Source: Escherichia virus TH57
Length of the DNA: 64,000 bases
Direction: 5' to 3' (one strand)
Sequence record: MT446422.1
Each line of letters opens with the position of its first letter. Within the stretch, counting starts at the first letter, position 1. Under the pieces are notes generated by a model. It was not told where the DNA came from. It was given only the letters and a program-made list of their open reading frames with translations, and did no database searches. Shown one piece after another: positions 1 to 5,311 of the stretch. A program made the position numbers and the translations under genes.

Positions 1-80
1 ATCTGGAAGAATTTGCTAATCGATTTGATGAGAAAGAAAACGAATTAATAGCTTATGTGAATACGCTTTAAGAAGGTGAT

Positions 81-653
81 ATGGCGAGTTTAATTTATCA
101 TTACGCAGCAATGAATGCAGGCAAAACAGCTTCATTGCTGACTGCAGCTTATTCCTATAAAGAGCGTGGAATGAGTGTGCTTTTGCTAAAGCCTGTTATT
201 GATAATCGGGACTCGGAATCTGAAATTAAATCACGTATTGGTATTAGTCAGGAAGCAAACCTGGTAACGGCCGACATGAACCTGTTTGAATTCTATAAAT
301 GGGCCGAGTCTCAAAAGGATATCCATTGTGTCCTGGTCGATGAAGCTCAATTTTTGTTACCAGAGCAAATTGACCAGTTAGCTCAAGTGGTTGATAATTA
401 CAATATCCCCGTTATGTGTTACGGGCTAAGAACAGATTTTCGGGGTCAGTTATTTCCCGGTTCAGCCAGACTTCTGGCTATTTCGGATAAACTGGTTGAA
501 TTAAAGGGCGTCTGCCATTGCGGCCGGAAAGCAACCATGACCGCTCGAGTAATCGACGGTGCTGCTGTAAAGGACGGCGAGCAAGTATTGGTCGGTGGGA
601 ATGAATCGTACGTATCTTTATGCAGGAAACATTGGCTCGAATTGACAAGCTGA
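81..653 (+). CDS. tk: thymidine kinase
   Basis: 190 aa, P-loop NAGKT, strong match to recalled T4 Tk; followed by rI as in T4. Confidence 0.9.
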   Translation: MASLIYHYAAMNAGKTASLLTAAYSYKERGMSVLLLKPVIDNRDSESEIKSRIGISQEANLVTADMNLFEFYKWAESQKDIHCVLVDEAQFLLPEQIDQLAQVVDNYNIPVMCYGLRTDFRGQLFPGSARLLAISDKLVELKGVCHCGRKATMTARVIDGAAVKDGEQVLVGGNESYVSLCRKHWLELTS

Positions 654-2969: not shown

Positions 2970-3167
2970 TTTATGAAAACTAAAGAAAAGCATTTAAAGC
3001 TTGAAGAGCTTATCGAGGCCTTATGCAGGTACAGTTGCTAGATTCGAAACAGCATTTTGTCACCAATACTCGGTTGATGATTGTACTAGGCTTTCTAAAG
3101 AAGAAGATAATGCCCTTAAAGAATTGCTAAATTTTATTAAACAAAATGTGAAATGAGGAAATAGAAA

Positions 3168-3728
3168 ATGATTATTGAAACGACTGAATTGTTTGGCGAA
3201 CTGACCGCTGAAGTAGTTAATAACGCAATTGAGCTTTGTCAAGAAGACGATAAAATCGTACTGACTATCGCTGATATTAAACCGCTTTATGATTTAATGG
3301 TTTTGGATAGACACGATTATCTTAATGGTCGTGCTAGTGCTCCTATTGATATCAATGATGATATGTATGCCTATATCTATAAAAATGAAGCTGGGTTTAA
3401 TCTGGAAAATGGTATTGAATGTCTGAGCATCAGCGATTCTGATAAATTCTTTGATTGTATTTTCAAACTCTTTCAGGAAGAATGTAAACCAGAAGTTGAA
3501 TGGAAAGTCCCAGGACAAGACGCACTGATTCGTTCTAGCGAAACGTTTGAAGGCGATGAAGAGGAATTAGATTATAACACTGAACTGACTGTGCATCAAC
3601 ATAACGGCCGTGACTTGTTGTCCATTGTCCAAAGACATGACGGCGAAAGTGAAGTAGTATTTACTAAGGACGAGCTAAAAGTTTTAGTCTCTTATCTGAA
3701 CTCTGTTATCCCAACTATGAACGCTTAA
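3168..3728 (+). CDS. hypothetical acidic protein
   Basis: 186-aa ORF with GAGGAAA SD, D/E-rich. Confidence 0.55.
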   Translation: MIIETTELFGELTAEVVNNAIELCQEDDKIVLTIADIKPLYDLMVLDRHDYLNGRASAPIDINDDMYAYIYKNEAGFNLENGIECLSISDSDKFFDCIFKLFQEECKPEVEWKVPGQDALIRSSETFEGDEEELDYNTELTVHQHNGRDLLSIVQRHDGESEVVFTKDELKVLVSYLNSVIPTMNA

Positions 3729-3738
3729 GGAAAATATT

Positions 3739-4191
3739 ATGATTATCAATACAAACTCATGGCACGCTCGTTTCCACGACCGTTTTTATGACCGCCATTC
3801 TCGACCACACTCTTTGTGTGCTTACTTTTGGAAAATTGTATGGGCCTGCTTTATTTGTTCTGTGCTTGCAGGTAGTACAATCTTCGCCTTATCTGCTGCA
3901 GGTGCTGGTATATTGGAGCAGTTCTTTGTATTAAGTATTCCTGTTGGTTTAGGGTTAGGGTTTATTTTAGGACTAGCTACAGTAGCTCTTATTCTGGCTG
4001 TAGCATTTGGTTTAATGTACGGTCTAATGAATTTATGGTCCTGGTACGATTTACATAAAGAAGAAAAAGAATGGAAACGTATTCAAGCTGAGCGTGAAGG
4101 CCGAGAAACTAAAGAAAACGTTTTCATTCAATATATCAAAGCTCGTAAATCTAAGATGTGTCCGGTAATCCATTTTGAGGCGAAGAAATGA
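3739..4191 (+). CDS. hypothetical membrane protein
   Basis: 150 aa, two long hydrophobic segments, basic C-terminus. Confidence 0.55.
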   Translation: MIINTNSWHARFHDRFYDRHSRPHSLCAYFWKIVWACFICSVLAGSTIFALSAAGAGILEQFFVLSIPVGLGLGFILGLATVALILAVAFGLMYGLMNLWSWYDLHKEEKEWKRIQAEREGRETKENVFIQYIKARKSKMCPVIHFEAKK

Positions 4192-5198
4192 GAACAGTTA
4201 TGAAAGGCTACTTCGGTAGCCATCTTTATGGAACAAGTACTCCTGAATCTGATGTCGATTTTAAGGAAATCTTTGTTCCACACCCACGTGATATTCTGTT
4301 AGGTACGGCTATGAACCATACCAACTTGAACACGAATAATACGGCATCCAAAAACACTAAAGACGATGTTGACCACGAGCTTTATAGTCTGAAATATTTC
4401 TTTAAACTGGCGGCTGAAGGCGAAACTGTTGCTCTGGACATGATTCACACTCCGGCTAACCTGGTAGTCAAATCCGATTTACCAGATGTATGGAAATTTA
4501 TCCAAGACAACCGTTCACGGTTCTATACAACTAACATGAAAGCCTATTTGGGGTATGTCCGTAAGCAAGCTTCAAAATATGGTGTTAAAGGTTCTAGACT
4601 GGCTGCTCTGCGTGGTGTACTGGCAATTGTTAACCAGATTCCTGAACAGTGGGTCGATTATCAAGAAGATGGTTCTGTTAAACAGCGTCGAACTAAGGTA
4701 GAAGATATTAAGCACCGACTCCCTGAAAACGAGTTCTGTGAATGGGTATTTCATAACCATGAGAAAACAGGTCCTCAAACGTTCTATACTGTCCTCGGTC
4801 GTAAATACCAAACCACTTTGTCGTTAATCGAGCTTAAGCAATCTCTGAATAAGCTTGATTCTGAATATGGTGAACGTGCTCGCAAGGCCGAAGCCAATGA
4901 AGGTATTGACTGGAAAGCTCTGAGCCACGCTTATCGTGCTGGATATCAGTTGAAGGAAATTTATATGACCGGTGACCTTCAATATCCTTTACGAACAGCC
5001 CCATTTATCCTTGAAATCAAACAAGGCCTACACGCTTTTAAAGATGTACAAGCTGAACTTGAAGCAATCGTCGATGAAGTCGAAACCAATGCCATCTGGG
5101 CGGCCAAGAACGGCATGCCAGACAAGGTAGACATGAAGTTCTGGGACAAGTTTGTTGAAGAGGTATATCTTGACAACCACAATTCCTATTATTGTTAA
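4188..5198 (+). CDS. putative nucleotidyltransferase-fold protein
   Basis: 336 aa; N-terminal GSHLYG...SDVDF resembles the minimal NTase motif; ATGA overlap with upstream ORF. Confidence 0.45.
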   Translation: MRTVMKGYFGSHLYGTSTPESDVDFKEIFVPHPRDILLGTAMNHTNLNTNNTASKNTKDDVDHELYSLKYFFKLAAEGETVALDMIHTPANLVVKSDLPDVWKFIQDNRSRFYTTNMKAYLGYVRKQASKYGVKGSRLAALRGVLAIVNQIPEQWVDYQEDGSVKQRRTKVEDIKHRLPENEFCEWVFHNHEKTGPQTFYTVLGRKYQTTLSLIELKQSLNKLDSEYGERARKAEANEGIDWKALSHAYRAGYQLKEIYMTGDLQYPLRTAPFILEIKQGLHAFKDVQAELEAIVDEVETNAIWAAKNGMPDKVDMKFWDKFVEEVYLDNHNSYYC

Positions 5199-5203
5199 AT
5201 TCT

Positions 5204-5229
5204 AAGGACCCTTCGGGGTCCTTTTTTTA
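5204..5229 (+). terminator. rho-independent terminator
   Basis: GGACCC-TTCG-GGGTCC hairpin followed by TTTTTTT. Confidence 0.75.
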
Positions 5230-5242
5230 TTTTAAAAAGTAG

Positions 5243-5311
5243 TGTACGACCAGATGGTTATGAGGCATAATGATTCCATACTGAGTTACCAAATAAAAAC
5301 TGGAGAATAAA
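5243..5311 (+). promoter_or_regulatory. early promoter cassette, CCATACTGAGTTACC leader type
   Basis: AAAAAGTAGTGTAC -35 region, 17-bp spacer, CATAAT, conserved leader GATTCCATACTGAGTTACCAAA..CTGGAGAATAAA ATG. Confidence 0.6.

Follow-up and report, generated by a model that had tools for sequence, protein, structure and literature searches.

A T4 NrdC.11 ortholog of the RlaP nucleotidyltransferase family in Escherichia virus TH57 and its possible part in phage RNA repair

Three tightly packed genes lie in a 64,000-nucleotide (nt) stretch of Escherichia virus TH57 (sequence record MT446422.1), the whole of which is referred to here as the window. The product of the third open reading frame (ORF), ORF3, is, as judged by sequence and gene order, the ortholog of T4 NrdC.11, and it almost certainly belongs to the RlaP family (PF10127), the RNA-ligase-associated nucleotidyltransferases (NTases) of the Pol-beta superfamily. 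We consider its probable role to be RlaP-type nucleotide restoration on damaged tRNA ahead of ligation by Rnl1. Orthology, family membership, conservation of catalytic residues, fold, and the RNA-repair gene context of relatives were all obtained in this analysis. As an ortholog, ORF3 is routine: the T4 gene is annotated, the family has been described, and the literature already contains a proposal of this likely role, so no new class is involved. The window comes from a T4-like phage of the Straboviridae, with Dhakavirus and Gaprivervirus isolates as its nearest DNA relatives (91.7% identity to P479 and ~89% to VR7 over positions 3000-5300). An earlier note, made from the letters alone, had described the genes as a translationally coupled trio for an acidic protein, a two-transmembrane (two-TM) protein, and an NTase-fold protein; its coordinates, the plus strand of all three genes, and the ATGA overlap of the last two are as it gave them (Table 1).

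The identity of ORF3 is apparent from both alignment and gene order. ORF3 aligns to T4 NrdC.11 (NP_049709.1) without gaps at 82% identity over 335 amino acids (aa) and is 83% identical to the T2 protein (YP_010073746.1) and 99% identical to that of VR7 (YP_004063782.1). This full-length high identity is joined by synteny of the tk-nrdC early region with T2, T4, VR7, and RB69 and, as in T4, ORF3 sits between homologs of mobD.1 and nrdC.10/nrdC.9, downstream of tk. The RefSeq product name of the T4, T2, and VR7 orthologs is "nucleotidyltransferase," which is also the name of phrog_388, matched by ORF3 at an E value of 3.5e-132. The hidden Markov model (HMM) comparison with PF10127 that the earlier note had proposed gave an E value of 1.1e-10 and 42.1 bits, above the gathering cutoff of 23, and all ORF3 homologs carry a precomputed PF10127 annotation. 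These homologs are numerous, being present in 1547 phage records by tblastn and falling into 3057 clusters at 50% identity in an exhaustive search. Many deposited phage records and UniRef names label NrdC.11 homologs "thioredoxin," and one reads "HNH homing endonuclease." ORF3 is without a thioredoxin domain, and the label was probably carried over from the gene name nrdC.

The motif that had first suggested an NTase, GSHLYG followed by SDVDF, is real, with a spacer of five residues (TSTPE) rather than the six originally counted: G10-S11-H-L-Y-G15, TSTPE, and then S21-D22-V-D24-F. Among 60 homologs of 35-55% identity, G10, S21, D22, D24, N56, and Y131 are invariant, as are R230, K243, H247, R250, P267, and G280 farther downstream, and conservation reaches at least 90% for S11, D60, D62, and D84. 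In a second homolog set, G10, S11, D22, D24, D60, D62, and D84 are all invariant. The Pol-beta catalytic set, consisting of a G-S loop, a DxD dyad, and a third conserved carboxylate (D60 or D62), is present in ORF3, and conservation of the GS...DxD pattern across distant homologs shows that the match is not coincidental.

Structure prediction leads to the same assignment. The AlphaFold model of ORF3, built on a 61-sequence alignment (predicted local distance difference test score [pLDDT], 89.4; predicted template modeling score, 0.76), has a Pol-beta NTase core with D60 and D62 at the start of strand 61-67. Compared to viral models, it gave 31 significant matches, all to phage or giant-virus NTases, and a Foldseek search of the model against the PDB gave weak matches in the same families; phmmer found no match to ORF3 among PDB sequences at E values up to 10. 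Prediction and fold comparison confirm the NTase fold and, with the above-cutoff PF10127 match, place ORF3 among the Pol-beta-superfamily NTases, as had been supposed.

The structural neighbors, which include KNTase, ANT(4'), LinB, and MNT-HEPN proteins, raise the question of whether ORF3 nucleotidylates a protein or small molecule in the style of MNT/MntA or KNTase/ANT/Lnu, for instance by AMPylation of a host toxin or factor. In the model, the C-terminal bundle appears to resemble HEPN or KNTase substrate-binding domains, and there are weak subthreshold matches to NTP_transf_2 and MntA. The scores nevertheless lie far below the cutoffs (13.8 versus 21 bits for PF01909 and 13.1 versus 60 for NF047752), and no HEPN gene adjoins ORF3. 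Bacterial RlaPs do not label Escherichia coli proteins, and relatives carry the gene beside those for RNA ligase and Pnkp rather than for HEPN toxins. Such an activity is thus very unlikely. The CD-NTase families, which had also been named as candidates, gave no match in the Pfam scan, and nothing in NCBIfam exceeded its cutoff.

Published work on the family points to RNA. PF10127 was named RlaP by Burroughs and Aravind for its linkage to RNA ligases, and according to a 2021 comparative study, RlaP is predicted to replace, ahead of ligation, the nucleotides that RloC and similar nucleases excise (PMC7824862). In a December 2025 preprint, two Pseudomonas RlaPs were found to add one or two nucleoside monophosphates (NMPs) to RNA 3'-OH ends, to prefer Mn2+, to leave DNA and protein alone, to favor the 5' half of cleaved tRNA over the acceptor 3' end, and to partly rescue aminoacylation of tRNA missing one anticodon-loop nucleotide (10.64898/2025.12.29.696909). 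They show little specificity for nucleoside triphosphate (NTP) or RNA, with rRNA, tRNA, and single-stranded oligonucleotides all being labeled (10.64898/2025.12.29.696909).

What ORF3 acts on, how many nucleotides it adds, and which biological target it serves are inferred. The enzyme would add one or two NMPs, without a template, to the 3'-OH of damaged RNA, with the typical substrate being the 5' half of a tRNA that has been cut in the anticodon loop, with subsequent trimming by a host nuclease (RloC, for example). The G10-S11 loop and the carboxylates D22, D24, and D60 or D62 would catalyze the reaction with a divalent metal. Phage Pnkp would first heal the ends to 3'-OH and 5'-P, NrdC.11 would next restore the lost nucleotide, and Rnl1 would finally seal the break. 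This chemistry is coherent because the RlaP product ends in a 3'-OH, as Rnl1 requires. Among the functions that the earlier note had listed for phage NTases, RNA repair is supported by the family, the published biochemistry, and the context in relatives; signaling or antisignaling is not, there being no PADLOC or CD-NTase match.

The gene neighborhoods of relatives were drawn from 158 NTase loci, 78 from IMG/VR (41-99% identity) and 80 from cellular genomes (32-51%). RNA repair is the only recurrent functional theme among them, and in L082 and L129 the NTase forms a tight cassette with genes for an RNA ligase and Pnkp (Table 1). In environmental phage and metagenome-assembled genome (MAG) loci, a gene for an HD-domain phosphohydrolase of ~165-210 aa lies directly 3' of the NTase, often overlapping it, and its product could be an end-healing partner, acting as a cyclic phosphodiesterase or phosphatase. 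Bacterial CCA-adding enzymes possess an HD domain, which these neighbors recall, and one may ask whether ORF3 is an RNA 3'-end NTase with some other target, either rebuilding the 3'-CCA of toxin-trimmed tRNA or tailing host or phage RNAs for stability. The low NTP and RNA specificity of the family and the lack of a ligase gene next to it in Tevenvirinae would suit this. On the other hand, the tight NTase-ligase-Pnkp cassettes suggest break repair, which needs sealing, and bacterial RlaP prefers the 5' half of cleaved tRNA to the acceptor 3' end. We view a target of this kind as credible but unlikely.

Several observations weigh against the assignment of ORF3 to tRNA restoration ahead of Rnl1. 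RNA-repair-type neighbors are a minority, found in ~9 of the 158 loci, of which four have a ligase, Pnkp, or kinase gene and five have only an HD or metallophosphoesterase gene. No RNA ligase or Pnkp gene is found within the window, and the gene adjoins neither in Tevenvirinae generally; in VR7, whose NTase is 99% identical, pseT and rnlA are encoded at 134-138 kb, ~85 kb from the NTase. The PF10127 alignment spans model positions 25-143 of 249, that is, the N-terminal half. The known enzyme activity is that of the bacterial PfRlaP and PaRlaP only, and T4 NrdC.11 itself is listed as an RlaP "of unknown function" in similarity-network cluster 5 (10.64898/2025.12.29.696909). The insert of the phage subfamily means that substrate specificity may differ from that of PfRlaP. 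Lastly, the T4 segment nrdC.11-mobD.3 is lost in viable genome-reduced T4 mutants (PMC9825161), which fits an accessory counterdefense role but also a dispensable gene of other function.

Other neighbors of the NTase were also recorded. In the Aeromonas T4-like phages L052, L054, and L057, a 352-aa protein with a C-terminal NUDIX domain is encoded ~160-1200 nt upstream of the NTase; gene cluster 22, which lies upstream of the NTase in Aeromonas phages and had been suspected of being a ligase, is a NUDIX protein. Two tandem paralogous copies of the NrdC.11-subfamily NTase are present in ~18 of the 80 bacterial-genome and MAG loci, mostly without recognizable RNA-repair neighbors, in Desulfobacterales, Nitrospirota, and Alphaproteobacteria.

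To place ORF3 in its own locus, we considered the two genes that precede it. ORF1 is acidic, as had been claimed (isoelectric point of 4.18, with 40 Asp and Glu versus 14 Lys and Arg). Its profile matches identify it as a homolog of T4 MobD.1 (Y05I), a two-domain "y05I-like putative transcription factor": both the N- and C-terminal y05I domains score above their cutoffs (PF24449, 6.2e-37, 126.7 versus 24.9 bits; PF24448, 1.6e-19, 70.5 versus 27 bits), phrog_1502 is matched at 1.3e-68, and tblastn finds homologs in 711 phage records, including T4 MobD.1 at 33-35% identity. Where the NTase is at least 59% identical to ORF3, a membrane-protein gene homologous to ORF2 lies upstream on the same strand in 40 of 41 loci, usually just after a MobD.1 homolog, and in nearly all of these close loci the ORF1 homolog is directly 5' of the membrane gene. 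Overlap of the membrane gene with the NTase, by 1 or 4 nt, is seen in 13 of the 41, and RB69 also overlaps; the remaining close loci have 406-1836 nt of extra small ORFs in between. Below 59% identity, the membrane gene is found within 4 kb in 2 of 37 loci.

T4 departs from this arrangement. There, the HNH homing endonuclease gene mobD stands between mobD.1 and nrdC.11, in the place occupied in RB69, VR7, and the phage studied here by the gene for the 150-aa membrane protein, and no homolog of that protein is found in the 15-kb T4 region examined. T4 mobD (L003, 10430-11209) is promoter-less and overlaps the nrdC.11 start by 17 nt; its target site is listed as unknown (PMC2988022). In T2 (L001, 3542-4001), the membrane gene is split, with the NSWH...LCAYFW part at 3542-3739 and another frame at 3552-4001 holding the TM and C-terminal part (the 135-aa T2_099), either because the gene has become a pseudogene through a frameshift or because the sequence contains an error.

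Whether the three genes form an obligate module, in which the NTase works with a regulator of the MobD.1 type and a membrane protein as anchor or sensor, can be judged from this distribution. The order of MobD.1, membrane protein, zero to three small ORFs, and NrdC.11 in 40 of 41 enterobacterial Tevenvirinae loci, the tight gene spacing, and the single terminator 3' of ORF3 speak for such a module. Yet the whole tk-nrdC region is syntenic, so that the order may simply be inherited; T4 has mobD in place of ORF2, and the T2 ORF2 is frameshifted; MobD.1 occurs in 711 records compared to 1547 for the NTase; and both partners are missing from distant NTase loci. An obligate module is therefore quite improbable, and the trio represents conserved synteny within a syntenic region. 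As T4 lacks ORF2, the membrane protein is not required for the NTase, but, its family being found repeatedly beside RNA-repair genes, it may take part in the same process. The earlier note had raised ORF2 as a possible partner or effector; an obligate role of this kind was rejected on account of the T4 mobD replacement, the split T2 gene, and the distant loci. The description of a coupled trio stands as far as overlap and synteny go; it fails in that overlap is limited to 13 of the 41 close loci and T4 does without ORF2.

The same loci bear on the proposal that ORF2 and ORF3 are a signaling and effector pair like Hailong or CBASS, in which the NTase makes or sequesters an oligonucleotide signal for the membrane protein or for host defense. 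ORF3 does resemble HalB, but only in the generic core of the NTase fold, where 122 of its 336 residues align at 12% identity, and a HalB-like small NTase with a cognate HalA-type effector was not found at ORF2/ORF3. ORF1, ORF2, and ORF3 all lack PADLOC matches at E values up to 1, and the Pfam scan brought up no CD-NTase family. T4 keeps NrdC.11 without the membrane protein, which is also absent from the ±4-kb flanks of 35 of the 37 more distant NTase loci and in other phages adjoins RNA ligases, not NTases. Hence, we hold a signaling pair to be highly improbable.

The association of ORF2 relatives with RNA ligases deserves consideration in its own right. ORF2 matches phrog_944 at 2.1e-55 and has homologs in 1115 phage records. 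It has one continuous hydrophobic block, residues ~29-99, with basic tails on both sides, and its AlphaFold2 model has helices at 26-62 and 67-119 at low confidence (pLDDT, 62); the membrane nature claimed for it is upheld, and two TM segments are plausible from hydropathy and this model. Family members have in common NSWH...LCxYFW at the N terminus, a hydrophobic hairpin, and Y(I/L)KA(R/K)KxKxCP at the C terminus, all present in ORF2 (which ends in Y-I-K-A-R-K-x-K-x-C-P). A motif-pattern scan of IMG/VR, in which the HMM confirmed 34 of 36 matches, shows the family to be well delimited. In an alignment of diverse members, invariance outside the TM region is limited to the side chains of H9, K139, and C141, and every full-length member has C27. 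The two tails, being basic, are probably cytoplasmic, and the pattern of H9, C27, K139, and C141 would be consistent with a small site at which they bind a metal together.

The ORF2 family precedes an RlaP NTase in Tevenvirinae and Acinetobacter T4-like phages, and elsewhere it is followed by RNA ligases or kinases of several kinds (Table 1); in both Aeromonas-phage genera, the ligase is of the DRB0094 type. A word-indexed search with ORF2 reached only relatives of at least 58% identity, and tblastn from the Pakpunavirus homolog gave matches confined to the Pakpunavirus lineage. The membrane gene has unrelated neighbors in Aeromonas phage 65, in a jumbo phage of Erwinia, and in roughly a dozen environmental contigs. 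The 292-305-aa proteins encoded after the membrane gene in L092 and L116 (phrog_10932) were not counted as ligases, having only a weak local match to the Henu5 Rnl1-like ligase (E value of 0.003-0.007). The association with RNA-repair genes is suggestive only, and it is doubtful that phrog_944 serves phage RNA-repair systems as a dedicated accessory and is more than a chance neighbor. If it does, the invariant His and Cys of its cytoplasmic tails could serve a membrane tether or regulator of RNA repair, or a block on the entry or activation of a tRNA-cleaving toxin. The recurrence of phrog_944 beside RNA-repair genes in unrelated phages is the only possibly new point of this work and offers a cheap lead into phage RNA repair.

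Features of the locus that may influence expression were found at both ends of ORF3. ORF1 and ORF2 are separated by 10 nt and are preceded by Shine-Dalgarno-like sequences, GAGGAAA for ORF1 and AAGGAAA for ORF2, and the ATGA overlap makes translational coupling of ORF2 with ORF3 possible. The transcription unit is closed by the terminator 3' of ORF3, and ORF1 and ORF2 are its cotranscribed, syntenic neighbors. A hairpin with a fold energy of -10.1 kcal/mol begins 18 nt into ORF3, covering codons 7-12 (G-Y-F-G-S-H, including the G-S motif). Of 41 related loci, 22 retain it, unchanged or with a single substitution that preserves the stem, at protein identities as low as 68%, and other loci that encode the same peptide use codons that destroy it. 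The hairpin could affect ORF3 translation or mRNA stability, or it could mark the point of mobD insertion as a hotspot of recombination or homing.

Upstream, a strong terminator hairpin at 1681-1708 (12-bp stem, TTCG loop, T-run) is directly followed by a promoter-like site, TTTACA-17-TACTAT, at 1722-1750; together with the 5204-5223 terminator, these elements would bound a unit of ~3.5 kb with about nine small genes, the NTase last. A sigma-70 promoter scan found 20 sites versus 19.7 expected, with no enrichment over shuffles, and no promoter is claimed. An 85-aa ORF at 2405-2662 has two CxxC pairs (CFDC...CVGC). In the corresponding upstream region of Klebsiella phage Mineola, an 88-aa gene, a possible counterpart, is annotated as a DksA-like zinc-finger protein.

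Table 1. Features of the ORF1-ORF3 locus, domains of ORF3, and selected loci of relatives
Feature	Location	Strand	Details
Thymidine kinase gene	81..653		
ORF1	3168..3728	+	186 aa
ORF2	3739..4191	+	150 aa
ORF3	4188..5198	+	336 aa
ORF2/ORF3 start/stop overlap	4188..4191	+	ATGA, from sequence; GAGG 8-11 nt upstream
Hairpin inside the ORF3 start	4206..4221	+	Perfect 6-bp stem, cUUCGg tetraloop (GGCTAC-TTCG-GTAGCC), GGCTACTTCGGTAGCC; terminator scan
Intrinsic terminator after ORF3	5204..5230 (hairpin 5204-5223)	+	8-bp GC-rich stem, TTCG loop, T-run; scan and sequence
ORF3 NTase core	Residues ~1-95		G10-S11, D22, D24, D60/D62
ORF3 beta-rich insert	Residues ~154-208		Predicted in the model; extra in phage subfamily
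ORF3 C-terminal helical domain			Conserved R230, K243, H247, R250
NTase locus	L082		NTase, PF09414 RNA ligase, Pnkp (AAA_33 kinase and HAD_PNKP phosphatase); 0-nt gap, then 4-nt overlap
NTase locus	L129		NTase, then Pnkp, then Rnl1-like ligase
NTase locus	L066		Metallophosphoesterase, then P-loop kinase overlapping NTase start
NTase locus	L074		NTase, then HD protein, then RNA ligase
NTase loci	L084, L085, L157, L193		HD protein directly 3' of NTase
HD phosphohydrolase genes	L074 5740-6231; L084 4914-5426; L085 4926-5423; L157 4888-5520; L193 4951-5484		
Tandem-copy NTase loci	L131, L135, L137, L138, L145, L146, L152, L161, L166, L171, L174, L187, L194, L196, L197, L198, L200, L204		
Membrane-gene locus	Pakpunavirus (~120 Pseudomonas phages)		3' of membrane gene: Rnl1-type ligase (PF09511, phrog_562) at 11 nt, then AAA_33/PNK-like kinase
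Membrane-gene locus	Aeromonas phage SW69-9 (Biquartavirus)		PF09414/phrog_968 RNA ligase ~450 nt 3' of membrane gene
Membrane-gene locus	Aeromonas phage Aes012 (Tulanevirus)		DRB0094-family RNA ligase (by annotation) 90 nt 3' of membrane gene
Membrane-gene locus	Cronobacter S13-like contig L120		T4 Rnl2-type ligase, one small ORF after membrane gene
Membrane-gene locus	L066 (environmental)		Membrane gene in gene string with phosphoesterase, kinase, and RlaP
Membrane-gene locus	L095		AAA_33/Zeta-type kinase 1.4 kb 3' of membrane gene

Among known systems, ORF3 was compared to the bacterial RlaPs, PfRlaP and PaRlaP, of the Pseudomonas rtcB-rlaP-rtcA operon. They share with ORF3 a PF10127 match above threshold and the GS, DxD, and third-Asp set; the ORF3 model may also share with them an N-terminal NTase followed by a C-terminal helical domain, and the same chemistry, addition of one or two NMPs onto an RNA 3'-OH, is predicted for ORF3. 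The two differ in similarity-network cluster (5 for NrdC.11 and 1a for bacterial RlaP), in the extra beta-rich insert of the phage protein, and in their partners, which are 5'-P ligases of the Rnl1/Rnl2 type and Pnkp for phage RlaP but RtcB/RtcA for the bacterial enzymes. CCA-adding and other Pol-beta RNA NTases, like RlaP, add NMPs to an RNA 3'-OH without a template and with the same catalytic fold, and both CCA-adding enzymes and RlaP are deployed by large phages for tRNA end repair; however, ORF3 has no sequence-level match to CCA-adding families in the Pfam scan, and RlaPs are without CCA specificity. In Hailong, HalB is a protein of 217 aa that makes oligodeoxyadenylate and HalA is its membrane effector, whereas ORF3 aligns with HalB in the core only and T4 can do without the membrane partner seen here, which elsewhere is associated with RNA ligases.

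The pathway that NrdC.11 is proposed to join is the Pnkp-Rnl1 tRNA repair of T4, which counters the PrrC anticodon nuclease and was the first system of RNA repair. The near-identical phage VR7 encodes both Pnkp and Rnl1, and relatives carry NTase-ligase-Pnkp cassettes. The host response to Pnkp and Rnl1 was RloC; as this nuclease takes out the wobble nucleotide as well, resealing alone leaves a dead tRNA. For T4-like phages, an RlaP-type NTase would supply the missing countermove, and more than 1500 sequenced phages carry the gene; this idea has already been published. The classical T4 pathway heals and seals without nucleotide addition, and the RlaP step is predicted to extend it to cover RloC-type nucleotide excision.

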